Source: a bacterium
Lineage (GTDB): Bacteria; Patescibacteriota; Microgenomatia; UBA10105; UBA927
DNA length: 64,000 bases
NCBI GenBank assembly: GCA_021817785.1
Contig: JAKAFY010000002.1
Location: forward strand, 11,750 to 75,749
Direction: 5' to 3'
Of the stretch, positions 2,968 through 24,894 are shown piece after piece. The position numbers were made by a program, and so were the translations under genes. Position 1 is the stretch's first letter, and the number at the start of each line of letters is the position of its first letter. The notes beneath the pieces were generated by a model. That model was not told the DNA's origin, did not search any database, and worked only from the letters and a program-made list of their open reading frames with translations.

Positions 2968-4962
2968 TTACGATAGCTCCACGGGGCACACGTCGATCGT
3001 GAGTTGATGGTCGTCTCCCAGGCCGAAATATTCATCCGCTTTTTCCGTATTGCGGTGGATGAACTGATACATCGCAAAGCGCACGCGCGTAAGCCACGAT
3101 GCTTTGGCAGAGGGGATGACGCGTTCATGCAGCGCTTTAAATACCCACTGTTCCGGCGGGTGAGTAGACGGGATGTCTTTGTTGCGGATAAAGTACCGCA
3201 CCAACGGTTCCAGATCCGGGTCTTCCATAAATCCAAACTGGACGGTGATACTCGTCACCGTTCCGTTTTTGTCGTTGCCTTCGGTAAAGTTATTTATGCG
3301 TACCCGCTGTTTGGCGTGGGGCACTTTCAATAGGTCGACGTTGAGCATGACCAAATGCTGCGGCAGGACGGCGTTTCTCTCCCAATACCGCTGGAGCTGG
3401 ATGGGGACGGTATCGGTCGTTTCCGTGATGGCTTTGCGTGTCAGAAATACCATAGTGCGGGGAAGGTCCAGCGGCGTCGTTTGCTGCAGCCGGACAATCT
3501 CCCGTACCGTCATGGTTTTATACGTATTAAACGTATGGATCGTGTGATATCTGCCCCATTTCCACGTTTCGATAATGCCGAAAATCGAAAGCCCTATGGT
3601 AAGCGGGATAAATCCTCCCTCGACAAATTTCAGCGAATTGGAAAGCAGAAAAAGCGCGTCAATCATGGCAAACGGGATAAATAAGCCGTAGACGTATACG
3701 CGGTTCCATTTCCACAGGCGGGAGGCGATCACGATCATTCCCAGCGTGGTGACCAGCATGACGCCGGAAACCGCCAATCCGTATGCACTAGCTAATTTGT
3801 TGCTCGACTGGAAGATGAGCACCAACAGCACGGCTCCGACGTAGAGCGCCCAGTTAATCTGGGGGATGTAGATTTGCCCCTCGTGTTCTTCGTGCGTATG
3901 TTTTATGGGCAAATACGGCAGAAGCCGCAATGATATCGCCTGCATGGTAAGCGAAAATGCTCCGGAAATGAGCGCCTGGGACGCGATGATGGTTGCCAAC
4001 GTTGCCAATAAAACCATGGGCGCCAAAAGTAACCGCGGCACCATGCTGAAAAATATGTTGCCCCCCAGTATTTCATGGCCGCTTAACAGATACGCGCCCT
4101 GCCCGAAATAATTGGCGACCAACGCGGGGTAGGCGACCAGATACCATCCCAGGCGGATCGGAGTCCTGCCGAAGTGCCCCATGTCCGCATACATAGCTTC
4201 ACCGCCCGTGATCACCAGCATGACGGATCCCAGGGTCAGGAGCGTGGTGACAAACGAGTGATTTCTCAAAAATGCATAGGCGTGCAGCGGATTGAGTGCC
4301 GCCAGAATGCCAGGCGTATGTATGACGGCCGTAGTCCCGATGACGCCGATAGCTGTAAACCACACGATCATGACGGGCCCAAACAGTCTCCCTACTTTAT
4401 GCGTGCCGTTTTTCTGGATGGCAAACAATCCGGTCAGGATGGCTATCGTAATCGGGATAATGTATGGCTCCAACGAATGGGTGACGATGCGTACTCCTTC
4501 TACTGCGGATATGACGCTGATGGCAGGCGTGATGATGCCGTCCCCGTACAGAAGTCCCGCAGCGATGATCAGTAGTCCGAGTAATACCGGATGGGATTTC
4601 GGCAGGTCGGCAATCAGGTTGTAGAGCGCAAACACGCCGCCTTCGCCGTCGCTGTCTGCACGCAATACAAAAAAGACGTATTTTATGGCGACAACCATGG
4701 TAAGCGCCCAAAACACCAGGCTTATGCCGCCCAACACATCCGTCCGGGTGAACGAAGAGAGCGCATGTCCGAAAAACATTTCGTTTATGGCATAGAGGGG
4801 GCTGGTGCCGATATCGCCGTATACCACGCCCAACGCGCCCAGGGTGAGAAGTGCCAGTCCGGCATGGGAATGCGGCTTTCCGTGTCGTTGGCCGGGGTCG
4901 TCCGGATGTGAGTCAGATTGTGTCATAGAAAAAAAGAAAAAGGATGCACACCCAGGGCGCAC
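2968..4962 (-). CDS. kup: KUP/HAK/KT family potassium transporter
   Basis: Hallmark motif VYGDIGTSPLY near the N-terminus, about 12 TM helices, and a long cytoplasmic C-terminal domain. The true start may be the internal Met at about 4926. Confidence 0.9.
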   Translation of the reverse strand: MRPGCASFFFFSMTQSDSHPDDPGQRHGKPHSHAGLALLTLGALGVVYGDIGTSPLYAINEMFFGHALSSFTRTDVLGGISLVFWALTMVVAIKYVFFVLRADSDGEGGVFALYNLIADLPKSHPVLLGLLIIAAGLLYGDGIITPAISVISAVEGVRIVTHSLEPYIIPITIAILTGLFAIQKNGTHKVGRLFGPVMIVWFTAIGVIGTTAVIHTPGILAALNPLHAYAFLRNHSFVTTLLTLGSVMLVITGGEAMYADMGHFGRTPIRLGWYLVAYPALVANYFGQGAYLLSGHEILGGNIFFSMVPRLLLAPMVLLATLATIIASQALISGAFSLTMQAISLRLLPYLPIKHTHEEHEGQIYIPQINWALYVGAVLLVLIFQSSNKLASAYGLAVSGVMLVTTLGMIVIASRLWKWNRVYVYGLFIPFAMIDALFLLSNSLKFVEGGFIPLTIGLSIFGIIETWKWGRYHTIHTFNTYKTMTVREIVRLQQTTPLDLPRTMVFLTRKAITETTDTVPIQLQRYWERNAVLPQHLVMLNVDLLKVPHAKQRVRINNFTEGNDKNGTVTSITVQFGFMEDPDLEPLVRYFIRNKDIPSTHPPEQWVFKALHERVIPSAKASWLTRVRFAMYQFIHRNTEKADEYFGLGDDHQLTIDVCPVELS

Positions 4963-5111
4963 ATCCCAGTACGATCACTATTGTAGGGGATTTGTTCTGG
5001 ATTTCAAGAGGAATTCTCGTATTGTTAGATATCAAACAATATACAGATACATATTGCCGTCGTATAGGAAGCACACACATAAATATCTATGATAAATATG
5101 TTGGTGATCTC

Positions 5112-5411
5112 ATGTTTGGTGGATTGCCGAAGGGGTTTCGTCCGAAAGTCCGGGCTGGGGTGCAGGGGATTCCCAGATGTAAGGGGTGCGAGGTGGAGCC
5201 GCAGTTATGTCCTCAGTCCTACATCCTTCAGGATGTATTTACAAAAAAATGGTTAGATCTCCATCCTGATGGTGTACCGGATGCGCGAACATCCCCAGAA
5301 TATCTGGCGTATCGTATTGAACGCTTTGAGCAGTGGGGAAAAAGACAGGGGTGTTTCGGGCGCGTCTATTTTGAAACGGCAATGAGCGAGCTTGCGGCAT
5401 TACTGCAGTAG
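5112..5411 (+). CDS. hypothetical protein
   Basis: ORF 4944-5411 trimmed to an internal ATG at 5112 to avoid overlapping the kup start. No motif; coding status uncertain. Confidence 0.2.
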   Translation: MFGGLPKGFRPKVRAGVQGIPRCKGCEVEPQLCPQSYILQDVFTKKWLDLHPDGVPDARTSPEYLAYRIERFEQWGKRQGCFGRVYFETAMSELAALLQ

Positions 5412-5650
5412 TGCTTTGGGGGCATGTCGACGTATGCGCTGTGATTTTTTTCCAAAGAAACACGATTCTCGATGGTGTGATGAATGCACGTAAAGGAGAA
5501 ATAGAGCATACGCGTGCATGCGGGGCAGTTGCTTCAATGCGTGTCTCGTGTGTGAGTTTGATGGTGTGCTATTTATTACATATTTTGCATACATATCTAT
5601 GATGTATTGATGCAGATGCGTTCTTTTTCTACTATGCGGGAGTTTCCTAT

Positions 5651-6133
5651 ATGTTTGGCACACTTGTTTCAGGAAAAGAATTATTATATCCTGTTGTCCT
5701 TGTTCGGCAGATTTCCGGCGTACCCCCTTTTGAGGTTAGAACAACAGTGGTGTCCGGTGGAGAAAAAACATACAGACAAAACAGTATCCGAAGCCAAAAC
5801 AGGTTGTCTGCATGGTCTTTATTGGATGTTACTGCACGGATGGAGGTTGTGAGGCCACGTCGTGTGACACGTCAAGTAAGCCGATTTGGACAACTAGACA
5901 TCTCCACGGAAATGCGAAGCGTCGGAAAATTAGATATTAACGTCCCCTCCATGTCTGCTGCGGATAATCCTTCTGCAGGGTGGCCGCGAGTGCGAGCAGA
6001 GGGTATATGGGGACGTTTAGGATTTTCTCGACAGGTTCATCCCGGTAAACCTATAGAAGTAACACGTGGAGGGGTGACGTTTCAAATATCGACGAGATGT
6101 GTCAGTGCGGAAGACCTGCGGCAATATTTATAA
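5651..6133 (+). CDS. hypothetical protein
   Basis: 160-aa ORF in a 1.2 kb gap between kup and the Nramp gene. No recognisable domain; it could be non-coding. Confidence 0.2.
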   Translation: MFGTLVSGKELLYPVVLVRQISGVPPFEVRTTVVSGGEKTYRQNSIRSQNRLSAWSLLDVTARMEVVRPRRVTRQVSRFGQLDISTEMRSVGKLDINVPSMSAADNPSAGWPRVRAEGIWGRLGFSRQVHPGKPIEVTRGGVTFQISTRCVSAEDLRQYL

Positions 6134-6144
6134 GATAGACCATT

Positions 6145-7407
6145 TCACCACCCCAACACCTGTCCTGCGATGGAAAGCAGGGAAGCTGCCGTGATAAATA
6201 CGCCGCCGCCGACGAGTAACCAATTCTGGAGCCGGGTATTCCGGTGTTTGCCCATAATTTTTTCATTATTCACGAACCGGTACAGGAAGAAAAAGATGAT
6301 CGGCAGTACGGCGCCATTGAAGAAATTGCCGATCACGGTGATGGAAAACAGGGTCACGGCAGGGAACAGGACGATGATGGTGCCGAGGGCGAGTTGAATC
6401 AGCAGGATCGTGTAAAAAAGCCGGCTTTTATGAAAATCCTCGTTTAAACTTCCGGGATAGCCAAAAAATTCCGAAAATGCATAGGAAGTGGAAAGCGGTA
6501 CGATGATGCAGCCAAACAGCCCGGCGACAAACAGCCCCATACCGAACAACAGGCCCGCCAGATTGCCTGCGAACGGTTTTATGGCGATAGACGCTTCCGC
6601 CGCTCCGGTAATCTGGACGCCGTGGACAAACAGCGTGGCGATTACCGCCACCATCATAAAAAATGAAAATAAATCGGTGAGGAACGCGCCCGTATACACT
6701 TCCCAGCGGTTGTACTTTAAATGCTCGACGGTCAGATGTTTGTCTTTGACGGTGGAATTGATAAAAAATTGCCCCCATGCGGTTATGGTGGTGCCGACGA
6801 CGGCTATGGCCGTATAGATAAACTTCGGGGAAAACGGCCCTTCCGGCAGGATCATCGATCGCACCGCCATACCCCAGTCCGGTTTGGATAGGATGGCGGA
6901 TACCATGTATACGAGATAAAACCCGATGGTGATCAGGAAAAACCGTTCAGTGGTTTTGTATTGCACCCGGACGATAAACAGGAACAGCAGGCCGACGATG
7001 ATCGGTAGCAATATCGTTGGCAGACCAAAGAGTGCGAGTGCGGATTTGACGCCCGCCAGATCCAGTACCACGACCGTAAAGTTTACGATAAACAGAAGCA
7101 CGAACATAGCGATAGAAATCCGTACGCCGTACTGTTCGCGGATGAGGTCGGCAAGTCCTTTGTCTGCCACGATACCGATTCTGGCGCCTATCTCCTGGGT
7201 TAATGCGAGCAATATGGTCATTGGGATGGTGATGATCAGGATCCTATAGCCAAATGTTGCCGCGGACACAGAATAGGCGGATACGCCGGCCGCATCATTA
7301 TCCGCAAATGCGGTAATAAGCCCCGGTCCGATGATGAGAGCGACGACCAGCAGCCGTTTCCATTTATATTTGATATACCGCAATATGGCGTAAAGTTTTT
7401 GGTTCAT
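6145..7407 (-). CDS. Nramp-related divalent cation transporter with a non-canonical metal site
   Basis: GPGLITAFADNDAAG aligns to the Nramp TM1 motif GPGFLMSIAxxDPGN, and TAIAVVGTTITAWGQFF aligns to TM6 (A-x-x-M-P-H). The protein has about 11 TM helices. Confidence 0.8.
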   Translation of the reverse strand: MNQKLYAILRYIKYKWKRLLVVALIIGPGLITAFADNDAAGVSAYSVSAATFGYRILIITIPMTILLALTQEIGARIGIVADKGLADLIREQYGVRISIAMFVLLFIVNFTVVVLDLAGVKSALALFGLPTILLPIIVGLLFLFIVRVQYKTTERFFLITIGFYLVYMVSAILSKPDWGMAVRSMILPEGPFSPKFIYTAIAVVGTTITAWGQFFINSTVKDKHLTVEHLKYNRWEVYTGAFLTDLFSFFMMVAVIATLFVHGVQITGAAEASIAIKPFAGNLAGLLFGMGLFVAGLFGCIIVPLSTSYAFSEFFGYPGSLNEDFHKSRLFYTILLIQLALGTIIVLFPAVTLFSITVIGNFFNGAVLPIIFFFLYRFVNNEKIMGKHRNTRLQNWLLVGGGVFITAASLLSIAGQVLGW

Positions 7408-7467
7408 AGTTCATGGTTCATAGGAAGATATTCTTGCGCTCTTGCTATGAACGTTCTTTCTGTCTTG

Positions 7468-8739
7468 CTAAATAAGCCGTCCCTCCATCCGTTCCAGTAA
7501 ATCGTCGATGGTGACGAGTCCCAGTATTTCCCGTTTTTCGTTGATAATCGGCAACGCATAGAGTTTGTATTTGATCATTTTTTTCATGGCGATTTCTTTG
7601 GGGGTAGTCAGGGAAATCACGATGACATTGGGAATCATAAACTTGTAGACGGGTATATCCGCATCCTGGGCAAGGAGTTCCTGCAGGTTAAAGACGCCGA
7701 CTAATTCCTTCTTTTTGTTGACCACATACACGTACGATAACTGGGAAAGTGTGGCGGATTCTCCTTTCAGGCGCGCCTTTACTTTGCCGGCCAGTTCTTC
7801 GGGATCCGCGGTCGCATAGTCATTGGTTGCAAGGTCTCCGATATCCGTAGCGGACAAAGATATCAGATAGTCTATAGGTGTTTTGACTTCCGGGGAAAGG
7901 AACGGCAGGATGAGCGCCCGCCGCCGTTCGGAAAGGGTAAGCAGGATGTCTGCCGCCTCATCGGGATCGATACGGGAAAGGATGTTGGCAGCTTTTTCCG
8001 GCTTGATGTTGCGGAGTAGATCGCGCTGTCTACCCACGTTTAAGTTCTGGATGACGTCCGCTTCGTATTCAGTGGGAAGCAAATCCAGGATTTTGGTAAG
8101 GTTTTTCAATGACAGCCGTTCCAGGTGGTCTGCCAGGTCTTCCGGGGCGAGTCTCGTCAGTTTGGTTTCTTCGCGTTTCAGCATGACCTTTCCTCGGGAA
8201 AGTTCGACGGGTTGCACGTCGTCCCAGCTTAAAAAATTCGAGGTAACGGTTTTGCCGATCATGGCCAGTGCTTTGTTCAGATACTGTTCAACGTTCAGCC
8301 ACCTGGCAATGCCCAGGACCCCCACGTCCACGCCTGCGATGACATAATACGGTTTTTGCTGGATGACGACGTCATTTACCCGCACCACTTTGTTGCCTTG
8401 TATATCAATAATCTGCTGATCGAGGAGATGGGTACGGATGGAAAGTTCCTGTTCGGTCGGCTCTACGGATTCATGATCCGGAGCCAGGATAATGGTGCCG
8501 TTGATGGATTTGACGCTGGTAATGGGAATATAGAGGTATCCGACAGAGCTGACGACACAAATCTTTGTGAGGAGTGGTTGGTCGGAGCCCAGGAAATAGA
8601 AGTCATAGAGCTTCCCGATACTTCCGCCATCAGATGAAACCACGGGCTTGCCCGCGAGCTCGGCAAAATAGAGCATAGGACAATTGAAAAATACCGTTTT
8701 TGCTATGCAGATACGCCGGAGAAGGCACGCATCTGTCAC
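7468..8739 (-). CDS. soluble MgtE N-terminal domain plus tandem CBS domain protein, with no transporter TM domain
   Basis: PEDLADHLERLS...DPDEAADILLTLSERRR matches the MgtE_N helical domain, and the C-terminal VVNKKKELVGVF...ILGLVTIDDLLERM matches a CBS pair. The N-terminal roughly 170 aa is PRC-barrel-like. There is no hydrophobic C-terminus. Confidence 0.7.
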   Translation of the reverse strand: MTDACLLRRICIAKTVFFNCPMLYFAELAGKPVVSSDGGSIGKLYDFYFLGSDQPLLTKICVVSSVGYLYIPITSVKSINGTIILAPDHESVEPTEQELSIRTHLLDQQIIDIQGNKVVRVNDVVIQQKPYYVIAGVDVGVLGIARWLNVEQYLNKALAMIGKTVTSNFLSWDDVQPVELSRGKVMLKREETKLTRLAPEDLADHLERLSLKNLTKILDLLPTEYEADVIQNLNVGRQRDLLRNIKPEKAANILSRIDPDEAADILLTLSERRRALILPFLSPEVKTPIDYLISLSATDIGDLATNDYATADPEELAGKVKARLKGESATLSQLSYVYVVNKKKELVGVFNLQELLAQDADIPVYKFMIPNVIVISLTTPKEIAMKKMIKYKLYALPIINEKREILGLVTIDDLLERMEGRLI

Positions 8740-8785
8740 ATATCTGATTGTAGTCCGGTCATTTTATCCCCGTCAATCACCCAAG

Positions 8786-9808
8786 TTATCGGGATGGTTG
8801 TTCCCGGAGCAATGAGAGTACTTTTTGGTGTATTTCTGGGGTTCTGCTGATGACAAAAGGTATGCGATAAGTATCATCTTCGTGTTTTTCAATGACATGA
8901 CGTACTATGGCAGATATATCTATGGGATTGTTATCCCAGTCCGTGACAGGATACCCGAGTGCTTGAGCTGCTGATGCCCAGATAGCGACTTCGTACCATG
9001 GATTTCCTTTGATGGGATCGATGATCGTGTCTATGGTTCCTTCCTGAAGGCCCAATACGGCATAGCCGCTAGCGCAGTCTAGGTCCCATTTGCCGCCCCT
9101 GGTAAATAATGGAAGCGAGCGGAGATTGTGCATCCGTCGGGTTAGTGTAGCGACGCGAACTGATTGGGTGTCACTGTTTTGGTCAATAGGTGGTAGAGCA
9201 AAATTCGTGTAGACGCGGGTCTGATCGGTACATTCGATAAAGGCGAATCTGGTATCTACTAAGCTTGCGATTCCGACCGTTTTGAGCGTTCCATTTTGGT
9301 CAAATATCGAAATGCCGGTTGTTTGTACCCGATTGCCTTTGGTTAACGAATGCGTCATGTCCAAGGGGTCGATAATAGCAAATCGGAGACCATCCCGTGG
9401 TACTGCGGAATTATTCTCGGGAGTTGCCCGTTCCCAGGCTGCACTTTCTTCGCTGCGCAACCAAAATTTAGGGATATCTTTTGTTTGAGCGGCAAGTTGT
9501 AATGCGACGGCAGTTCCAATTTCGTCGATACTGCGGTGCGGATTGTATTCTGGGCCTCCTGTGGGTTCCAATAAATCTGCGTTAACCAATGCCATATCGT
9601 TTAATGCAGGAATAAGAAGTCGCTGGGTGGCGGTAAGATACGCAAAGACAAATTTTCCCTCCGGAGTGGTTGCGATATCGGATTCTTTTGCTTCTTTTTG
9701 TGCCTGTTCAAGAACGCTCGGCATTCGGGAGAGAATATCCCGATAGGATTGCACGGATTTTTGTTCCCGTTGCGAAAGAAGTCGTGCCCGTTCGGCTGTG
9801 GCTGCCAT
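8786..9808 (-). CDS. inositol monophosphatase / 3'(2'),5'-bisphosphate nucleotidase family protein
   Basis: AIIDPLDMTHS resembles the IMPase DPIDGT metal-binding motif, and WDLDCASGYAVL resembles the WDxAAG motif. Confidence 0.65.
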   Translation of the reverse strand: MAATAERARLLSQREQKSVQSYRDILSRMPSVLEQAQKEAKESDIATTPEGKFVFAYLTATQRLLIPALNDMALVNADLLEPTGGPEYNPHRSIDEIGTAVALQLAAQTKDIPKFWLRSEESAAWERATPENNSAVPRDGLRFAIIDPLDMTHSLTKGNRVQTTGISIFDQNGTLKTVGIASLVDTRFAFIECTDQTRVYTNFALPPIDQNSDTQSVRVATLTRRMHNLRSLPLFTRGGKWDLDCASGYAVLGLQEGTIDTIIDPIKGNPWYEVAIWASAAQALGYPVTDWDNNPIDISAIVRHVIEKHEDDTYRIPFVISRTPEIHQKVLSLLREQPSR

Positions 9809-9916
9809 AGGCGGATGGTATCAAAATATGGCCTATAATGCAAATTAGATAGGTTGATTAGATTCTATTGCAGTATTCTCCAATTTGTATAAGAAACAAT
9901 ATAAAAAAGTGTGCAT

Positions 9917-10186
9917 CTAAAATTTTCCTCCCTTTTTTCCGCGGCGAAGAAATTGAAGCGGCCCCCTTTTAATAGCGATATTTCCATTGTTATCTATCGT
10001 TATGTGACCATCGGACCGGGCTATTGTTGTTTGTAACATTCTTTCTGATGCGCCCGCTGCTTCAAGAACGTCTTTCGCATTGACGGATAATTTATTGTCG
10101 CCAAGAAGACCACGTAAAATACTTTCAATTTTTGTTGCCGGGCCATCGGTCTTTCTCCGGATATATTTATCTAACATACGATTCAA
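9917..10186 (-). CDS. small hypothetical protein
   Basis: 89-aa ORF in an intergenic region with no recognisable domain. Confidence 0.25.
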   Translation of the reverse strand: MNRMLDKYIRRKTDGPATKIESILRGLLGDNKLSVNAKDVLEAAGASERMLQTTIARSDGHITIDNNGNIAIKRGPLQFLRRGKKGGKF

Positions 10187-10245
10187 ATTATATCATAAAA
10201 ATGATCATAAATATAGTTATAGGATATGATATACTACCGATTTGT

Positions 10246-11070
10246 ATGGCCATGATTGAACGTTCTACATTTCGATCGCCCGAAACGCACCCTCATTCCA
10301 CGCGTGCATTGTTGTGGGCAACGCTGACCAGCGCTACTGTGGAAAAGGACTATGTGCCGAACCGAGAGCGGCAAAACACGGTATTTGACCGCATAGACTG
10401 GAGCACATTTGAGTCCGAAGTGGCTGCAGAATCGACAGGAACTGGTGAAGGAGCGGGAAAAAGGCTTCGCGGTAAGATTTTTGAGATGTTTATTCAGGCG
10501 GATCCTGAATTCGGAGAGCGTACTCCGTTGGAAAAGGAATTATTGGCCTTGGCTCACAATCCAGATGCATTTGGATTGGGGAAAGAATTAGGCTACCACC
10601 GAAACCCCGATATGGCGTTTCTTATTGTCCAAAAAGAGGATGGTGTGGTCATCGAGGGAGTCGGAGAATCGAAATTGGGACTACTAAACGAGCGCTCGTT
10701 TAAACAACTATCCGAAACAGGCTTTGCTGCCGGGGTGAAAGCGTTAGCAGACGTGGTCAATACATTGCCGAACCCAGAAGCGCATGGGCTTGTCGAAGTG
10801 GCAAAAGCACGACAGGCACTGGCTCCGGGCAAGCAGCTGCTTACAATCTCTCCGGAATTTACCCAGCTTCTTGTGGTGCCTGCAAACCGCACAATTGAGT
10901 GGGCGAGCACGCTTATTAACCGCCGAGAGTTTAGTCCAGCCGGCAGGCAGGAGTTTTACGAGTTATTGAACGATACCCGTCATGTTCGGACGGCGAGAGC
11001 GGCCTTTAGTACGGCAGAGGTATCCGCAGTTGCGAATTGTTTTTCTCGCAATTTGACGAGAGGTACATAA
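10246..11070 (+). CDS. hypothetical protein
   Basis: Start trimmed to the ATG at 10246 within ORF 10132-11070. No recognisable domain. Its last roughly 55 nt are duplicated at 12036-12090. Confidence 0.4.
   Translation: MAMIERSTFRSPETHPHSTRALLWATLTSATVEKDYVPNRERQNTVFDRIDWSTFESEVAAESTGTGEGAGKRLRGKIFEMFIQADPEFGERTPLEKELLALAHNPDAFGLGKELGYHRNPDMAFLIVQKEDGVVIEGVGESKLGLLNERSFKQLSETGFAAGVKALADVVNTLPNPEAHGLVEVAKARQALAPGKQLLTISPEFTQLLVVPANRTIEWASTLINRREFSPAGRQEFYELLNDTRHVRTARAAFSTAEVSAVANCFSRNLTRGT
10984..11039 (+). repeat. 55-bp direct repeat, left copy (3' end of the 10246-11070 gene)
   Basis: GTTCGGACGGCGAGAGCGGCCTTTAGTACGGCAGAGGTATCCGCAGTTGCGAATTG is about 87% identical to 12036-12090. Confidence 0.6.
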
Positions 11071-17251: not shown

Positions 17252-18298
17252 ATGAGTGAAATGGCATCACAGACACCGGGAGAGATAAGGAATAAAATAC
17301 CAGTAGGGGCAAAACCGCTGGAGCGGAGCGTTTTGATAGGTATGTGGGATGTAACCAAAAAAGCAGTGGAGAGTCAGAGCGCTCGTGCATGGAACGAACG
17401 GATTATCAAAACGATAAATGAAAAGATCATCCCGAAACGCACTCCAGAAGAACTTGCATTTATCGCCAAACATCACATGGCGATCGAACGAGCTGCGACA
17501 GTCTCGGGGATTATTATTTCCTCCGCGGAAATATATACAGTTTTTTTGCTTGCCGCTCTAGGGAAATTGCAAATTGACCGCATGAGGGCGGTTTCCCGCT
17601 ATCGAGAGGCATTACAGAAGCATTTTGCCGCAGACCCCGGATTTCAGGATATAAAGCGTGTATATGATGGTATCCATTCCGGTAAAAAAACCGTCGGCTT
17701 TTTCGCATTTGCTACGGCTATAAATACCTTGTTAAACCAGATTGAATCAGGACAACGGCAGCAAATCAATGCGATGCTGCGTACGCCAAAAAATATACAA
17801 GAGGCCGACATCGTGCTGGAACGGATCTATAAGTCAGCATTTTGTGAAGCGAAAAATATAGAACGCCGGGCGTTAGGTCAGCCGGCGTTACCTCTCGATA
17901 ACCCCCGGCTGGCAGAGGAAGCGAACGCATCCTATGGAGAATGGAGAAACATACAGTGGAGGGGGTTGGATGGTGTTCTGCACCAGATGCGCTTTCCCCG
18001 TGGCCGAAAACGGGGATTATATCAGGCGATGCAAGGGGTGGACAATCACGCAATACTTGCCCAGTACATACAAAGCATTATGCCTTTGACCGGCGATGAA
18101 GCCATGTTAGGTGGTCCGCCAATCGTCGTTGATGAATCTGTCGAACACGATGGAACAATAGTGCACCGGGAGAAAAAATATCATGGCCCTCCACAATCTC
18201 CTGTTGGGCTTCGCGAAGGGCGTGAATATCAACTAAACGCAAAAGGACGGATGAAGACACGAAGAAATGAACATGGTCAAAATGGGAATGTCTGGTGA
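17252..18298 (+). CDS. paralog-array protein 1 (conserved N-terminal module, variable C-terminus)
   Basis: N-terminal roughly 90 aa share a pattern with the four downstream genes (G...A.K......GK..L..Y..L....T.EEKK, then a hydrophobic helix AIGW/VSGI...). Confidence 0.55.
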   Translation: MSEMASQTPGEIRNKIPVGAKPLERSVLIGMWDVTKKAVESQSARAWNERIIKTINEKIIPKRTPEELAFIAKHHMAIERAATVSGIIISSAEIYTVFLLAALGKLQIDRMRAVSRYREALQKHFAADPGFQDIKRVYDGIHSGKKTVGFFAFATAINTLLNQIESGQRQQINAMLRTPKNIQEADIVLERIYKSAFCEAKNIERRALGQPALPLDNPRLAEEANASYGEWRNIQWRGLDGVLHQMRFPRGRKRGLYQAMQGVDNHAILAQYIQSIMPLTGDEAMLGGPPIVVDESVEHDGTIVHREKKYHGPPQSPVGLREGREYQLNAKGRMKTRRNEHGQNGNVW

Positions 18299-18322
18299 GT
18301 ATAATGAGATACGGAGGAATAT

Positions 18323-19906
18323 ATGGTTGAGGGTGCAGGAATACGAGAGTCATCGCTGATATCGCCTGAGCCGTCCAAAAAGACGGTACTCTATGGTATT
18401 GGACGGGCGGGGGAGGCAATCAATAAACAATTAGGGCCGAAAGCCTGGGAACAGCGGGTGGACAACGCCATAAGCACGTACATTATCCCTCATGTTTCTC
18501 CCGAGATGCGGGAGACGATAGAAACGTATAAGCCGGAAATAGCCAAATGGTCGGGCTGGGCGATTACCGGCGCCGAAGTGGCGGTAGTAGCTGCCGCAAC
18601 CTATGGTGGCATCCGGTTGGTGGTGAACAAACTTCATAAGCGGCACGTTCCCACTCCAAATTCTCCTGTTCCGGTTACCCCGGATTTGCATATTCGTTCT
18701 GATGCGAAGGAATGGTGGGAACGCATACGCATGGAGGGAGACATACCTGAAGATGATTCCGGTCTTGATTTGCTTAGAAAATTGAGTGCAAAAAAGCCCG
18801 CACCCCCGCCAGTATTTGTTGTAGGTCCGGACGAAGTTCCGTCATGGCTTCGTGAATTAGCAGGGGATCATGCGCCGGCCGGTGCCAAAGCAGATAATGT
18901 TCCTGATTGGGTGCAGGAAGTTATGCATCGCCGCACGTTACAGGGCGCTGATAAAGTGCCAGATTTTTTGAGAAAAATATCCGCACGCAACCATGTATCA
19001 CAAGCCAGCGAAGCGGCTGCGAGCGACATTGGTTCTCATACTTCACGATGGTGGCAAGACCGAGCTGCCGCAGGGTTGGATACGTCTGTATTGCACACCG
19101 TACGCAAAATACCCAAACCCAGGACCAGATCATCGCCTTCGTCCGTTCCGATCAAGGATTTGCCCGTTCATACCAGGATATATTTTGACAAGAAAAAGAT
19201 ACAGAACATTTTTGCACGGAGACGTTCTCGACGTATTCGGGATATTCAAAACCAGGTACGGCGGGTAAAAGAACGCCGTTTTTCGGACTTGGCGCACCCG
19301 ATCGACCCAATGGCTTCGGCCAATGCAGTCGTTCAGGTCTCCCCACGTGCGGAAGAATATCAACAGTTACTCAGACGAAAACGGGCTGAAACAGAACGAC
19401 TGTATATAGACGATATGCGCCTGCGGCAAGAGATGAGAGAAAATGCGAGGCTCCGGGCTCTCGAGAAGAAACGAGCAATACTGAAAGAAAAAATAGATGC
19501 AGTAAGAAAAAGAATGGGGGAACACCCTTATGCCGTCCAAATGGTAGCTCCGCGTATACAAGATGAGATTACGCGGGCAGCACAGTCCAAGGTACTTACT
19601 GCCAATCCGGTCCGGTCCGAGCAACAGGGATGGATTGCGGATCAGCTTCGGGAGGTGATGGAACGGATACATGAACCAAAGGTTCGCAGGCAGTTAGATC
19701 GGTTGCTCATAGCCCCGACAGATCTAACATCATCAGCAGAACGCGCTGAAGTCGGCCGTATCGTCACTGATTTATTTCAGGCAGTTCAGTCGGACAAAAC
19801 CCCCTCAATGCAGGCAACAGTTATTCAGCGGGGCAGTCAGTGGGTTTCGCTTGGTATGCCCGGGCTACATCATGTGATTGATTATTTCATCTCACATAGA
19901 AAATAA
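18323..19906 (+). CDS. paralog-array protein 2, with an Arg/Glu-rich coiled-coil C-terminus
   Basis: Conserved N-terminal module (KTVLYGIGRAGEAINKQ...SGWAITGAEVAVVAAATYG). The C-terminus has RRRSRRIRDIQNQVRRVKERR and long R/E-rich helices. Confidence 0.55.
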   Translation: MVEGAGIRESSLISPEPSKKTVLYGIGRAGEAINKQLGPKAWEQRVDNAISTYIIPHVSPEMRETIETYKPEIAKWSGWAITGAEVAVVAAATYGGIRLVVNKLHKRHVPTPNSPVPVTPDLHIRSDAKEWWERIRMEGDIPEDDSGLDLLRKLSAKKPAPPPVFVVGPDEVPSWLRELAGDHAPAGAKADNVPDWVQEVMHRRTLQGADKVPDFLRKISARNHVSQASEAAASDIGSHTSRWWQDRAAAGLDTSVLHTVRKIPKPRTRSSPSSVPIKDLPVHTRIYFDKKKIQNIFARRRSRRIRDIQNQVRRVKERRFSDLAHPIDPMASANAVVQVSPRAEEYQQLLRRKRAETERLYIDDMRLRQEMRENARLRALEKKRAILKEKIDAVRKRMGEHPYAVQMVAPRIQDEITRAAQSKVLTANPVRSEQQGWIADQLREVMERIHEPKVRRQLDRLLIAPTDLTSSAERAEVGRIVTDLFQAVQSDKTPSMQATVIQRGSQWVSLGMPGLHHVIDYFISHRK

Positions 19907-19907
19907 T

Positions 19908-20729
19908 ATGCCCGAACGAAAAAAAACAGTCAGTCATAATACACCGTTCGTTGAACGGATGTTTATCGGTGTCGCACGCGCACCCAAAGCCTGGTCGGAA
20001 TATCAGGGGAGAAAGGCACTTGATATCTATGATGCGCTCAAATTTACCAAATTAACCTCCGAAGAAACAAAAATAGCAGATAAAACCCGTGCGTTTATCA
20101 ACAAACACCAAAAAGCTATCGGCTGGACGGCAACCGCATTCGAGATCGCTGTGATAGCAAAGATAGCGGCAGCAGGATACGGGCGATTGCATAAAAATAG
20201 CGACCATATAGTACAGGACTCGCAACCCGCATTCCCAACAGACTATGTCGCTGATTTGGCACCGGAGAGGGCAACCATGAAAGACGTCGTATCCGTATTG
20301 GCGATGGGTATTGTTCCGAAAGATCAATCTGCGGCGATTCTCGAAGCGCATTTTGCTCAATTTGCCGCAAAAAACAGTATTCCCATTCATCTGAAAGCAG
20401 AGAACACGCAATTACTATTCTCCCTTATAGGGGACGCGATACTCGGATGGAGGGGAATAGCGCAGGAATTTTTCACGGCTGATTTTTACACGCTTTGCAC
20501 AGCGATCTTTCTGAGGATAGCGTCCACGGACAAGGAAGACTCAATAGACTTGATGCATCAGGCTACGTTTGTATTGGACGGAGCATTTCCACATGATCCC
20601 CCTCAGGACGATGGTCCGGTGCAGACGGGTGTTGATGTCTGGAAATCACTCCAATTTTTCGGCATGAAAGATATTGCGTATCATTTTATTTCGGTATTTA
20701 AACGGAACGCTCATGAAGGAACAGCATAA
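19908..20729 (+). CDS. paralog-array protein 3
   Basis: ATG immediately follows the upstream stop. N-terminus FVERMFIGVARAPKAW...TSEETKIADK...AIGWTATAFEIAVIAKIAAAGYG. Confidence 0.55.
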   Translation: MPERKKTVSHNTPFVERMFIGVARAPKAWSEYQGRKALDIYDALKFTKLTSEETKIADKTRAFINKHQKAIGWTATAFEIAVIAKIAAAGYGRLHKNSDHIVQDSQPAFPTDYVADLAPERATMKDVVSVLAMGIVPKDQSAAILEAHFAQFAAKNSIPIHLKAENTQLLFSLIGDAILGWRGIAQEFFTADFYTLCTAIFLRIASTDKEDSIDLMHQATFVLDGAFPHDPPQDDGPVQTGVDVWKSLQFFGMKDIAYHFISVFKRNAHEGTA

Positions 20730-21783
20730 ATCAGCGGATGCACCGCGCGTAAAACAGGTGTTTGTCGGGGTAGGAAATGCACTGAAACATATGACTCCCG
20801 AACATCAGGGAAAAGGCATATTGGCTCTGTACGACCATCTGTATTATTCTACGCTGACGGATGAAGAGAAAAAAGTGAAAGGCAAACTCCGGCCGATTAT
20901 AGAAAAGAATACCGCCGCCATCGGCTGGGCAGCAACGGGAGTAGAAGCAGCCACTCTCATCGCAATTGTTGCTATGGGTCTCAAGAAGTTTCGCTCAACG
21001 CGTGCTTCGGAAATGAATGCCGCAATAAAAGATGGAGTGATTCCCCAGCCAAAATTTATGCGTCCGGATGGAGAATTCCTTACGGAAGTCAGGCAGGGGC
21101 TTATGCGCACACATAATGAATTCAAATCAGAAGATATCGAGCTGATGTTGCATATGGCATTTGGCCAACGACCCACAGCAAAAGTAGCAGGAGCGATTGA
21201 TGAAGCCCTTCGGGAACGAAGCAGTCTGAACGATGCACACCTGGAAGGCGCATTCATAGAGCACGTCTATACTATATACAATAAACTGCCGATCCTTCGT
21301 AGGAGTATCGATAAGGATTTAGCGGTTCTCCATGAGGCAAATTTCCCCGGATTTGAACATATTATCATGGAACAGTGGAAATGTATGCCGGAGTCTCTTG
21401 CGACAACCGTTATCGATGCGCTCTCTAAGCATGTTGATTTGGCTGCGGCTAAACAACTTTGGGAGTTGCTGCATCCGTATCGAGAGGAGGCGTATACTTT
21501 TGAATCCTTTGCGAGTCCGCTTCACTGGAGTTCGATGTGGAACGGGCTTATATGGGGAGTGTTTGAGCGGTTTGTGCATATGCCAAGATCGGCAGAAGAA
21601 CGGAGCGCTTTGTTGAATCAGCCGGATATGTCGGAAGCGTGGTATACATTTTTTCAGTCATTCCGTATAGATGATCCGACGCATATAGCACAGCACATAC
21701 TCGACGACATATGTATAAAAGGGGCACGAGAGCTCGGGGACAGTTTTTTGAACAAATCCGTGTTGGAAAAACTGATAGGATGA
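20713..21783 (+). CDS. paralog-array protein 4
   Basis: 17-nt overlap with the upstream gene. N-terminus VKQVFVGVGNALKHMTPEHQGKGILALYDHLYYSTLTDEEKKVKGK...AIGWAATGVEAATLIAIVAMGL. Confidence 0.55.
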   Translation: MKEQHKSADAPRVKQVFVGVGNALKHMTPEHQGKGILALYDHLYYSTLTDEEKKVKGKLRPIIEKNTAAIGWAATGVEAATLIAIVAMGLKKFRSTRASEMNAAIKDGVIPQPKFMRPDGEFLTEVRQGLMRTHNEFKSEDIELMLHMAFGQRPTAKVAGAIDEALRERSSLNDAHLEGAFIEHVYTIYNKLPILRRSIDKDLAVLHEANFPGFEHIIMEQWKCMPESLATTVIDALSKHVDLAAAKQLWELLHPYREEAYTFESFASPLHWSSMWNGLIWGVFERFVHMPRSAEERSALLNQPDMSEAWYTFFQSFRIDDPTHIAQHILDDICIKGARELGDSFLNKSVLEKLIG

Positions 21784-21784
21784 T

Positions 21785-22648
21785 ATGCATATGCCGGAAG
21801 TGTCTCGGACAACCTACCATGCCAAAGATACGCTCAAACGCGTCCTGATAGGCTCATGGAATGCAGTCAAACCTGAGCACCAGGGGAAAAAAGTGCTGGA
21901 ATTTTATGAAAAACTTCGGTTCCCAAAATATACGGACGAAGAAAAGAAAGTCGCAGACAGAATATATCTTCTGCTGAAAACGCATTCGAACGCCGTGGGA
22001 GTCGGGGCAATCGTTGGAGAGACGGCGGTGGCAGCTGCAGTCGTGTGGGGATATACACGTTTAAAACATCATAAGAAGTCTCTGCTACGGTCACAAGAAG
22101 GGCAACCTGCAGAGAAAATAAGCGGAGAGGTACTCTCGGTTGATGATTATCTTCAGAATACATTGGTCCCTCGCGATACCGCCATAGGTATTGTTATGGA
22201 TGAAGGAGTTGAAACATGGGGGATAGAAAAAAGAATATTAGATATATTAGGATATCACGATGAAGATCGTGTTGGTGAGATGGCATTTCTGCTTGGCTGT
22301 GCTGCACGAGTGCTCGATCCGATGAAGCCAAACGAACTACAGTTGGGTGATATCGGCACCGTGCTTTTGGATCCGAAGAACTTCGAAAAAATGAATGAAC
22401 TAGCGAATCACACTCCTCTGGAAAGCGGATTTCAGGCATTTCCCGTGGATCCGCATGTGGTTATAGACCGTCTTCGGTTCCTGTTTCGGGATGCTCCGGG
22501 CGGGTCTGACCTCTTTACGTATTGGGGCAGAGTTTTGCGTTTTACCGGGCTCCACGCCCTTATTCCCGGAGGGACGACACGTACGGATGGCGGCGCGGGT
22601 GTCCATCGGGTCTTGACGTGGCTATATATGGCCATGTCCTCATCGTAG
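21785..22648 (+). CDS. paralog-array protein 5
   Basis: ATG lies 1 nt after the upstream stop. N-terminus LKRVLIGSWNAVKPEHQGKKVLEFYEKLRFPKYTDEEKKVADR...AVGVGAIVGETAVAAAVVWGY. Confidence 0.55.
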   Translation: MHMPEVSRTTYHAKDTLKRVLIGSWNAVKPEHQGKKVLEFYEKLRFPKYTDEEKKVADRIYLLLKTHSNAVGVGAIVGETAVAAAVVWGYTRLKHHKKSLLRSQEGQPAEKISGEVLSVDDYLQNTLVPRDTAIGIVMDEGVETWGIEKRILDILGYHDEDRVGEMAFLLGCAARVLDPMKPNELQLGDIGTVLLDPKNFEKMNELANHTPLESGFQAFPVDPHVVIDRLRFLFRDAPGGSDLFTYWGRVLRFTGLHALIPGGTTRTDGGAGVHRVLTWLYMAMSSS

Positions 22649-23691: not shown

Positions 23692-24894
23692 TCAATGATG
23701 TTTGATTGCTAGTGTTAGCAGTCGATAGTATCCAGTGACAATTTGGTGCCAATCAAAGTGATGGACAAGATGTTTTTGGAGCACTTTGGCAATCTTTTTC
23801 CGTTTTTCCGTATGGGTAAGTGCCCATAAAAGTGCTGCCCGTATGGCATGGTCATCTCCTGCAGGAATGAGTTTGCCGGTTTTATTGGGTACTATGACTT
23901 CCCGTACGCCCGCTACGTCGGTTGCTATGACGTATGCGCCGCTTGCACCCGCTTCCAGGATAACGTTGGGGAATCCTTCGTTATGATGGGAAGGGTGTAC
24001 AAATATGTCCGAAGCTTGGAGCGTATCGCGGACACCTTTGGTGTTTAGTGGACCCAGGAAAACGACACGGTTTTCCAGATTGTCCTGCCGAATCTGTTTT
24101 TTTATGGAGTCGGATAACGGACCATCACCTGCTATGGCGAAATAGACATTGCGTTTGAGTTTTGGGAACAACTGCCGAAATATTTTGTATATTTTAAGCG
24201 CCCCTTTGGCCCAGATGAGGCGACCGACAAAAGTGATAAAGATGTCTGTAGGCTTTACCTTGCGGCGTATGCCTGGTATACGACGTTTATTTCGCGCGAT
24301 AGGAGAAAAGTATGCAGTATCCACGCCGCCGTATACGAGCCGGATATTTTGTTTGAATGTATATGTGCGATTGAGAAACAATTGGGCAGATTTATTGGTT
24401 GCTGTGACAAGATCATAGCGGGGGAGGCTCCATGCAGCAAGGGTGTGGTCGACGAGGTTGGCTATGGCCTCTACTGTTTGATTTTCGTGTACCGGACGAC
24501 CCGCTACGTGTTCTGTGAATATACTTTTGGCTCCGATTATTTTGGCATACAGCCACGTCCACCAGGCCGAGTCGAAAAACCGCAGGTGGGTATGGACAAA
24601 CGTATAGTTATTGTGAGCCAGTTTGGATAATACCATGCAGAGTGCAATAGGATTTGGAAGAGCAAACTGGTCAGGGAGTATCTGCCAGCCGGGTATTCGG
24701 TATATCGTAAGACCGCGATAGGTTTCTACCGCGGGAGCATTGTCGGTGTTATAGCACACCACATCCACGGAGATGTGTTTATACGTTTCCATAAGGTGGA
24801 CGTAGAGCTCTTCCATATACCGCTGACTCCCCCCGATATGGGGGTAGAAGTACGGAGAGATAAGGAGGATATGTAATTGTGTTTTGCGTTTCAT
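23692..24894 (-). CDS. GT4-family glycosyltransferase
   Basis: N-terminal GGSQRY donor/acceptor fold, and the C-terminal EGFPNVILEAGASGAYVIATDVAGVREVI matches the GT4 E-x7-E motif region. Confidence 0.85.
   Translation of the reverse strand: MKRKTQLHILLISPYFYPHIGGSQRYMEELYVHLMETYKHISVDVVCYNTDNAPAVETYRGLTIYRIPGWQILPDQFALPNPIALCMVLSKLAHNNYTFVHTHLRFFDSAWWTWLYAKIIGAKSIFTEHVAGRPVHENQTVEAIANLVDHTLAAWSLPRYDLVTATNKSAQLFLNRTYTFKQNIRLVYGGVDTAYFSPIARNKRRIPGIRRKVKPTDIFITFVGRLIWAKGALKIYKIFRQLFPKLKRNVYFAIAGDGPLSDSIKKQIRQDNLENRVVFLGPLNTKGVRDTLQASDIFVHPSHHNEGFPNVILEAGASGAYVIATDVAGVREVIVPNKTGKLIPAGDDHAIRAALLWALTHTEKRKKIAKVLQKHLVHHFDWHQIVTGYYRLLTLAIKHH

Follow-up and report, generated by a model that had tools for sequence, protein, structure and literature searches.

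In a Patescibacteria (CPR) genome, a gene for an Nramp-type permease lies directly downstream of a gene for a soluble protein that resembles the cytosolic part of MgtE. This arrangement raises the questions of which metal the permease carries and what the soluble protein (the partner) does for it, and we examined both in a window of 64,000 nucleotides, the whole stretch of DNA analysed, and in related loci. A sequence-only reading of the window had proposed a split module in which an MgtE-type Mg2+ and nucleotide sensor regulates the permease, and had taken the pairing to be undescribed. The pairing was in fact published by Shin et al. 2014 (PMC4072509), who found that most NrmT genes adjoin a gene for a homologue of the MgtE cytoplasmic domain and speculated on feedback regulation in these 'mgtE-nramp operons'. 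The locus is a two-gene operon of this published type and an ordinary member of it, here from a CPR bacterium. The operon type has been known since 2014, for the transporter family a structure has been solved and transport has been measured, and a CPR example of a known operon adds little by itself.

Layout of the operon

Both open reading frames lie on the minus strand where the sequence-only reading had placed them, the permease gene at 6145..7407 (420 aa; PF01566) and the partner frame at 7468..8739, and they are separated by a gap of exactly 60 nt (7408..7467). The longest partner frame begins at a GTG (8739); gene calls on identical public contigs and the lengths of 119 homologues place the start at the ATG at 8676, giving a protein of 402 aa (7468..8676) with Pfam PRC, MgtE_N and CBS domains. 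A 340-aa ORF upstream matched nothing in Pfam, in NCBIfam or among PDB sequences, including when a 4-sequence profile was used as the query.

A promoter-like site on the minus strand (TTGACG-18 nt-TACAAT, 8747..8776) lies about 70 nt upstream of the partner ATG and scored 10/12 in a consensus scan, which makes it a candidate promoter. Its -10 element, CTACAATCA, does not vary between the window and its three closest relatives (L094-L096), and the window shares TTGAC of the -35 element with L094 and L096 (L095 has no coverage at -35). Within the 60-nt spacer a predicted RNA hairpin (7416..7452, minus strand) has a minimum free energy of -12 kcal/mol and a z score of -3.1, and none of 200 shuffled sequences folded equally well. 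Three ATGAAC(C/T) heptamers come after the hairpin, and the transporter start codon lies in the third. Repeats related to these heptamers are expanded in the relative L096.

No M-box or other riboswitch was matched by Rfam models in positions 5000..11000, at the gathering score or at E <= 10, and the M-box was also absent from the nine CPR loci scanned. An M-box Mg2+ riboswitch (123.7 bits) does lie directly upstream of the gene pair in a Chloroflexia locus (L021). M-boxes are found in many mgtE-nramp operons but do not define them, and the A. capsulatum operon also has none (Shin et al. 2014, PMC4072509). With the NrmT operons of C. acetobutylicum (Ca_c0685) and A. capsulatum (Acp2976-Acp2977) the present locus shares gene order (MgtE-like gene upstream, permease downstream), strand, permease clade and the proposed feedback. 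It differs from the operons of Shin et al. in its CPR host and missing M-box, and also in its partner, which is one 402-aa protein and not 'small', whereas the C. acetobutylicum version is split in two, and which carries an N-terminal module unmentioned in PMC4072509.

Metal site and clade of the permease

The permease matched 354 of the 357 positions of the Nramp profile PF01566 (E 5e-68, 230 bits) and reached 77.6 bits with the MntH NCBIfam model NF001923, under its cut-off of 430. NRMTs are the Mg2+-transporting sister clade of SLC11/Nramp. In a search of solved structures the permease scored 233.8 bits (E 4e-68) with EleNRMT from Eggerthella lenta (7qia) and at most 58.7 bits with any canonical Nramp; identity was 33% to EleNRMT over 399 aa, along the whole length, and about 20% to canonical Nramps.

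The metal-site motifs were read from the translation. The helix-1 motif D38-A-A-G41 (7285..7296, minus strand), inside 'ADNDAAG', aligns with D55..G58 of EleNRMT and D56..N59 of DraNramp, and the helix-6 motif T206-T-I-T209-A-W211 (6775..6792, minus strand) aligns with T224..A227..W229 and A227..M230..H232, respectively. Asp38 is thus kept, and the canonical Asn, Ala and Met are replaced by Gly41, Thr206 and Thr209. The loss of Met and His noted in the sequence-only reading was borne out by the translation and by structure alignments: those to EleNRMT, DraNramp and PDB 10ky place the changes right in the metal site, ruling out canonical D/N/M/H residues at shifted positions. The substitutions are not due to chance, since the D/G/T/T/W pattern is found in 116 of 119 close homologues and the two genes occur together in several phyla. 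The permease carries both halves of the NRMT consensus published by Ramanadane et al. 2022 (DxxG-TxxA/T; PMC8806188), and the residue at the Met position is Thr in 147, Ala in 26 and Ser in 28 of 207 sequences.

Compared with canonical MntH/Nramp proteins (DraNramp, ScaDMT, EcoDMT), the permease shares the LeuT-type SLC11 fold, PF01566 and the helix-1 Asp, but DPGN and A/CxxMPH are both replaced in it, with exchanges at Asn, at Met and at the two His positions, and it has lost the proton pathway. From DraNramp to the permease, E124 becomes F106, D131 V113, H232 W211, H237 I216, R352 T333 and R353 I334, and the TM3 acid (D116) is the sole proton-pathway residue retained; EleNRMT shows the same pattern of loss (PMC8806188). 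The permease and EleNRMT have in common DxxG, a Thr at the Ala223/Thr224 position, Trp for the first helix-6b His and the loss of the helix-3/helix-9 proton path. They differ in that Ala227 of EleNRMT is Thr209 here (the other residue allowed by TxxA/T), Gln379 is Asn361 (helix 10) and Glu133 is Asp116. We judged the score gap and the signature motifs to be decisive, and the permease, as its sequence indicates, therefore belongs to the NRMT clade, the group of Nramp-related Mg2+ transporters to which it had been assigned before, with the enlarged, hard-ligand binding site. EleNRMT carries Mg2+ and Mn2+ without H+ coupling and is active alone in proteoliposomes. By analogy, the present permease would be an uncoupled, membrane-potential-driven uniporter that imports Mg2+ and probably Mn2+, but not Ca2+.

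It is unlikely, in our estimate, that the locus is instead a Mn2+ or broad divalent-cation uptake system whose partner senses Mn2+ or serves as a cytosolic metal chaperone and not as a gate. The A. capsulatum NrmT-group protein, which has an adjoining MgtE-like gene and no M-box, fully rescued a Mn2+ transport defect and only partly a Mg2+ defect, and chaperone activity was named as an alternative in that study (Shin et al. 2014, PMC4072509). Mn2+ is, moreover, also carried by EleNRMT. Thr209 stands where EleNRMT has Ala, and no characterised homologue with the Thr variant was found, but TxxT lies within the NRMT consensus and is the commonest form among relatives, and Thr206, at a position critical for Mg2+ in EleNRMT, is kept. 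Likewise, the M-box missing from the window and from nine CPR relatives controls the same gene pair in the Chloroflexi relative, and the ligands retained in the partner are the carboxylates of MgtE low-affinity Mg2+ sites.

Domains and conserved residues of the partner

From its N-terminus, the soluble partner consists of a PRC-barrel module followed by an MgtE N domain and then a CBS pair. The latter two, and the lack of a pore, had been recognised from the sequence alone, and Pfam agreed; the N-terminal module had been missed. Pfam matched the MgtE_N helical domain (PF03448, E 3e-16; residues 166-275, 7852..8181, minus strand), the CBS pair (PF00571, E 8e-16; residues 288-400, 7477..7815, minus strand) and a PRC barrel (PF05239, E 7e-10; 39.2 bits, cut-off 21.2), and gave no match to the MgtE transmembrane pore domain. 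TIGR00400 scored 101.7 bits, under its cut-off of 232.75, and covered model positions 23-250 only. The closest solved relatives were MgtE cytosolic domains, both in the PDB sequence search (2yvy, E 6e-21) and by Foldseek (8gpv/8gps/2oux/2yvy, E 1e-17 to 6e-20).

The partner ends at the equivalent of MgtE T257, right before the plug helix. In MgtE, the plug helix and the Mg2/Mg3 sites are the elements linking sensing to the pore. Compared with T. thermophilus MgtE (2yvx/2yvy), the partner shares the N domain and CBS pair together with acidic ligands of Mg4 (D91, D247), Mg6 (D95) and Mg7 (E59), but it has no plug helix or transmembrane pore, so that sites Mg1-Mg3 are absent, and it carries the extra 165-residue module ahead of the N domain. 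The MgtE ligands E59, D91, D95, D247 and D250 correspond to D207, D239, D243, D392 and E395, and D226 (site Mg5) is lost to K371; five of six acidic positions are therefore still acidic and may bind Mg2+. D239 and D243 are invariant across 119 CPR partner homologues. Among the ATP contacts of MgtE, R187, N203 and F227 are substituted by Q, I and L, Y170 is kept as Y315 and D188 is conservatively replaced by E333. Regulation of the permease by an MgtE-type sensor is a reasonable idea as far as Mg2+ is concerned, and fits the synteny, the ligands and the M-box of a relative; with most ATP contacts substituted, the nucleotide part of the earlier proposal is doubtful.

The N-terminal module (8182..8676, minus strand) comprises a PRC barrel (residues 1-65) and a conserved beta/alpha extension (residues 77-160), and its AlphaFold2 model had a pLDDT of 85 and a pTM of 0.80. 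The top Foldseek fold matches were CdpB1/CdpB2 of Archaeoglobus fulgidus (8qzo; E 3e-5, 126-137 aligned columns, TM about 0.5), followed by the PRC domains of RC-H, CdvA and RimM. The CdpB proteins are 15-16% identical to the module, act in another biological context and have no MgtE_N or CBS domains. PRC-barrel folds attach to membrane complexes elsewhere. Of 20 partner positions conserved at >=90% across phyla, 10 fall within residues 86-151, and Pfam matched nothing in residues 73-165. We considered whether residues 73-165 form a second PRC barrel, which was not borne out: profile-profile comparison with residues 1-72 aligned only 'L..Q.I.D..G.KV.RV.DV' (probability 0.7%, E 0.08), suggestive of a resemblance in motif only. 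A search with the module as query returned mainly fragments and short proteins. It also returned two distant gene pairs, apparently split into PRC and MgtE_N/CBS genes, with no NRMT nearby, on long contigs with other fragmented genes. In the literature searched we found no mention of the PRC-barrel part ('PRC-barrel' has 0 occurrences in PMC4072509), and no later work on the partner after Shin et al. 2014.

Conservation of the pair and a proposed mechanism

Co-conservation of the two genes, on which the idea of a split module depends, was confirmed in relatives. With a genome scan profile built from a 12-sequence alignment we compared 80 species-level loci from bacteria and archaea, including Chloroflexi, Acidobacteria, Nitrospirota, Armatimonadota and CPR. 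In 50 of them the partner gene directly precedes the permease gene on the same strand, and in 2 it directly follows it; 8 more have it within 5 kb, 15 lack it, and 5 could not be evaluated. It was thus adjacent in 52/75 evaluable loci, within 5 kb in 60/75, and not within 5 kb of the NRMT gene in 15/75. The two genes adjoin on the same strand in organisms ranging from CPR bacteria to the archaeal Methanosarcinales and Nanoarchaeota, and the stop codon of the first often overlaps the start codon of the second; the remaining neighbourhood is not conserved. When look-ups were anchored on the partner, an Nramp gene followed immediately downstream in 4/4 cases, and the gaps of -4 to +6 nt suggest translational coupling in these relatives. 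The partner has more than 400 homologues at E <= 1e-5, mostly of about 400 aa among the matches listed. A natural fusion of partner and NRMT was sought among longer representatives: ten held Nramp domains only, and one, P0275 (CBS + Nramp), reads through an intergenic stretch, has a frameshifted C-terminus and is most likely a gene-call artefact.

Synteny of this kind could also reflect shared regulation alone, the partner being co-transcribed but making no contact with the permease and, as a CBS/PRC protein, informing some other target, for instance ribosomes, cell division or transcription, of the Mg2+ or energy status. Among the PRC-barrel fold neighbours, RimM does serve ribosome maturation, and CdpB and CdvA serve division in archaea; the two distant PRC + MgtE_N/CBS pairs lie away from any NRMT, 15 NRMT loci are partnerless, and Shin et al. 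saw no effect of co-expression (PMC4072509). Same-strand adjacency from CPR to archaea, often with stop/start overlaps, is nevertheless what subunits or direct partners would be expected to show, and the other genes of the neighbourhood are not conserved; we regard such an indirect role as quite improbable. That the partner is a decaying, functionless remnant of a full-length mgtE which lost its pore and sits by the permease incidentally, as its stop exactly at the start of the plug helix might hint, is in effect refuted by the conservation data: an intact ORF, the hundreds of homologues with positions invariant across phyla, an N-terminal module not found in MgtE, a conserved promoter-like element and the pairing with NRMT genes in most evaluable loci.

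On balance we lean towards a direct role, and infer that the partner acts on the NRMT permease in trans as a cytosolic Mg2+ sensor that lowers transport. CorA and MgtE carry their cytosolic Mg2+ sensor in cis. A uniporter that carries divalent cations without coupling would, at normal membrane potential, overload the cell, and the partner would therefore supply the sensor in trans. At high cytosolic Mg2+, the ion would bridge the N domain and the CBS pair at those acidic sites of the Mg4, Mg6 and Mg7 type that are kept, and the compacted partner would dock onto the permease from the cytoplasmic side, probably through its highly conserved PRC-barrel module, and lower transport. Synteny, the retained Mg2+ ligands and the M-box of one relative speak for this reading. 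Against it, the plug helix, the Mg2/Mg3 sites and D226 are missing from the partner, most ATP contacts are substituted, and the window has no M-box. NRMTs also function without a partner, as EleNRMT does and as NrmT genes do in complementing Mg2+ uptake; rescue by the A. capsulatum permease was unchanged when its partner was co-expressed (Shin et al. 2014, PMC4072509), and a fifth of evaluable loci (15/75) are partnerless.

A more specific version, which we put forward tentatively and as a possibility, is that the partner gates a LeuT-fold uniporter in response to Mg2+ and can detach from it. Residues D86, Q88, D91, R99-V100-N101-D102, R125 and W151 of the PRC-barrel module would attach it to the NRMT at the cytoplasmic face, and Mg2+-driven closure of the MgtE_N/CBS clamp would block the inward-open vestibule. 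If true, this would be a trans-acting version of the feedback gates of MgtE and CorA, and would give the SLC11 family its first known accessory subunit.

Several observations sharpen the question on the partner. The two genes stay together in lineages as far apart as CPR bacteria and archaea. Of the features of MgtE, the partner has the inter-domain Mg2+ ligands and lacks the plug helix and the ATP site. Its most conserved part is a PRC-barrel module that the literature searched does not describe. Concrete residues and constructs are now at hand for work on binding or gating. In the small genomes of CPR bacteria, the pair may be the main route of Mg2+ entry.

The permease and its partner gene

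Two minus-strand ORFs separated by exactly 60 nt were both present in the window, as the sequence-only reading had reported: a permease of 420 aa (6145..7407) and a partner whose longest form spans 7468..8739 (423 aa, starting at a GTG). The partner start was placed at the ATG at 8676, giving 402 aa, by gene calls on identical public contigs and by the lengths among the homologues listed. A promoter-like consensus match (TTGACG-18-TACAAT, 8776..8747, minus strand) has a -10 element, CTACAATCA, that the three closest relatives keep unchanged. The DNA comes from a metagenome-assembled genome of Patescibacteria/CPR; GCA_021842445.1 has identical genes, and homologues carry the labels Gottesman-, Roizman- and Levybacteria.

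The permease matched Pfam Nramp (E 5e-68), and its best solved relative by far was the Eggerthella lenta transporter EleNRMT (PDB 7qia; 233.8 bits, E 4e-68, 33% identity over 399 residues), whereas every canonical Nramp scored at most 58.7 bits and the NCBIfam MntH model reached 77.6 bits against a cut-off of 430. Nramp-related Mg2+ transporters (NRMTs) are defined by DxxG in helix 1 and TxxA/T in helix 6, replacing DxxN and A/CxxM (Ramanadane et al. 2022, PMC8806188). The metal-site motifs, correctly noted earlier as substituted, read D38-A-A-G41 and T206-T-I-T209; judged by sequence, they are the NRMT signature itself and not a new variant. This signature was common to 116 of 119 close homologues, and in a set of 207 relatives the Met position was most often Thr. 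Positions that carry protons in canonical Nramps were substituted (H232 to W211, H237 to I216, E124 to F106, D131 to V113, R352 to T333 and R353 to I334), leaving the TM3 acid, D116, as the only proton-path residue kept; EleNRMT has these residues replaced alike (PMC8806188). EleNRMT carries Mg2+ and Mn2+ but not Ca2+, and does so uncoupled from H+ (PMC8806188); by analogy we infer that the permease would do the same.

The spacer (7408..7467, minus strand) contains a stable hairpin at 7416..7452 (-12 kcal/mol, z -3.1), after which come three ATGAAC(C/T) heptamers in tandem; the first of these starts a five-codon mini-ORF whose TGA overlaps the transporter ATG. At the related locus L096 similar repeat units are expanded and the spacer is about 170 nt. 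The hairpin and heptamers may represent translational control or a hypervariable element.

Domains and Mg2+ ligands of the partner

Pfam identified PRC-barrel, MgtE_N and CBS domains in the partner and no MgtE pore domain. Over its C-terminal 230 residues it matched the cytosolic domains of MgtE, both in sequence (2yvy, E 6e-21) and in fold (8gpv, 8gps, 2oux and 2yvy; E 1e-17 to 6e-20). We mapped the Mg2+ ligands onto Thermus thermophilus MgtE, using the sites defined in PMC5882242. The inter-domain carboxylates E59 (site Mg7), D91 and D247 (Mg4) and D95 (Mg6) are retained as D207, D239 and D392, and D243; D250 corresponds to E395, and the Mg5 ligand D226 is lost to Lys371. D239 and D243 were invariant in 119 CPR homologues. 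Because the partner ends at the equivalent of MgtE T257, the plug helix and the Mg2/Mg3 ligands (E258, D259) are absent. Among MgtE ATP contacts (PMC5529423), only Y170 and an acidic equivalent of D188 are left, with F227, N203 and R187 being Leu, Ile and Gln. The earlier description of a poreless MgtE_N and CBS protein upstream of the permease was thus borne out, but these substitutions make the nucleotide sensing also ascribed to it doubtful.

A 165-residue module that the sequence-only reading had missed precedes the MgtE-like part, consisting of a PRC barrel (PF05239, 39.2 bits) and a beta/alpha extension. Its structure model was a confident single unit (pLDDT 85, pTM 0.80). By fold it matched the PRC-barrel proteins CdpB1/CdpB2 best (8qzo, E 3e-5), ahead of the RC-H, CdvA and RimM PRC domains. 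Of the 20 partner positions with at least 90% conservation across phyla, half fall in this module (D86, Q88, D91, G94, R99, V100, N101, D102, R125 and W151).

Conservation and surroundings of the pair

The operon structure is conserved. Scanning a single genome per species gave 80 NRMT loci, around each of which the partner was sought by HMM: it was adjacent upstream on the same strand in 50, adjacent downstream in two, within 5 kb in eight and absent within 5 kb in 15, with five having too little flank for judgement. Partner-bearing loci include Chloroflexi, Acidobacteria, Nitrospirota, Armatimonadota, Nanoarchaeota and Methanosarcinales. Starting from the partner, an Nramp gene lay directly downstream in four of four CPR genomes (gaps -4 to +6 nt). 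The pairing had been thought undescribed; Shin et al. (2014) had already reported an MgtE cytoplasmic-domain homologue next to most NrmT genes and drawn such gene pairs as mgtE-nramp operons (Fig. S5, PMC4072509), and the pair, whose identification we regard as nearly certain, is a CPR example of that known operon.

In an uncultured Chloroflexia genome (L021), the pair is directly preceded by an M-box Mg2+ riboswitch (RF00380, 123.7 bits; 3126..3315, plus strand). It was the sole example in a scan of 13 related loci; the window and nine CPR loci gave none. A glycosyltransferase (Glyco_trans_1_2) sits between partner and NRMT in Acidobacteriaceae and 'Rhodanobacteraceae' genomes (L063, 1107..4816; L085, 3877..4959), joined in L063 by a GMC oxidoreductase and an aldo/keto reductase, and a Chloroflexia locus (L018) has a tandem partner-NRMT-NRMT arrangement. 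Both genes also occur in assemblies titled 'uncultured Gammaproteobacteria' (L007, L014, L015, L028, L030, L035, L038) and 'Rickettsiales' (L020). At most of these loci the partner scores like those of Gottesman-/Roizmanbacteria, with NRMT identities to the window protein of 41% to 63% across them, and the labels look unreliable. The metagenomic protein P0275, a candidate natural CBS-NRMT fusion, reads through an intergenic stretch and has a frameshifted C-terminus, and is probably a gene-call artefact.

A 340-aa ORF (8786..9808, minus strand) immediately precedes the partner gene and matched nothing in Pfam, NCBIfam or PDB sequences; the three closest relatives (L094, L095, L096) have a conserved version of it (51-64% identity) in syntenic position. 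Its 'DPLDMT...' and 'WxLDCxSG' stretches recall what we take to be inositol-monophosphatase-family motifs. A Kup-type K+ transporter (2968..4962, minus strand; K_trans, E 4e-169) lies on the same strand as the NRMT, about 1.2 kb further downstream, so that two cation-uptake systems are neighbours, an arrangement kept on identical contigs (L001, L003, L004) and not in more distant relatives. Further ORFs had no Pfam match: five consecutive ones at 17252..22648 (plus strand; 348, 527, 283, 369 and 287 aa), preceded on an overlapping public contig by a weakly PaaX_M/Cas2-like protein of 193 aa, and minus-strand ORFs of 952, 421 and 2098 aa (24891..27749, 27984..29249 and 40061..46357).

Proposed regulation of the permease

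The permease would be a uniporter of Mg2+ (and Mn2+) driven by the membrane potential. Since CorA and MgtE are both gated by cytosolic Mg2+, such uniport would physiologically need a brake. Mg2+ would make the partner compact, and the partner would dock on the permease via its PRC-barrel module. We consider direct Mg2+-dependent gating by the partner a tentative proposal, its chances somewhat short of even. Shin et al. offered two speculative roles for the MgtE-like fragment, 'cytoplasmic feedback regulation of transport' or service as a metal chaperone; in their test of the Acidobacterium capsulatum pair, co-expression did not improve Mg2+ rescue (PMC4072509). A Mn2+ or chaperone role is a rival to gating. 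The partner could also regulate another target, and for two distant, apparently split PRC and MgtE_N/CBS pairs no NRMT was nearby. On the strength of its conservation, we rejected the reading of a decaying mgtE remnant.

The earlier interpretation was partly supported: the biology it proposed, a sensor that would regulate a permease, is sound, and its novelty fell to Shin et al. Searchable literature yielded no later work on the partner, and none of the 41 papers naming two or more of MgtE, PRC-barrel and Nramp contains the term 'PRC-barrel'. For work on the function of this ancillary protein, our analysis points to particular residues and to a domain not remarked on before.
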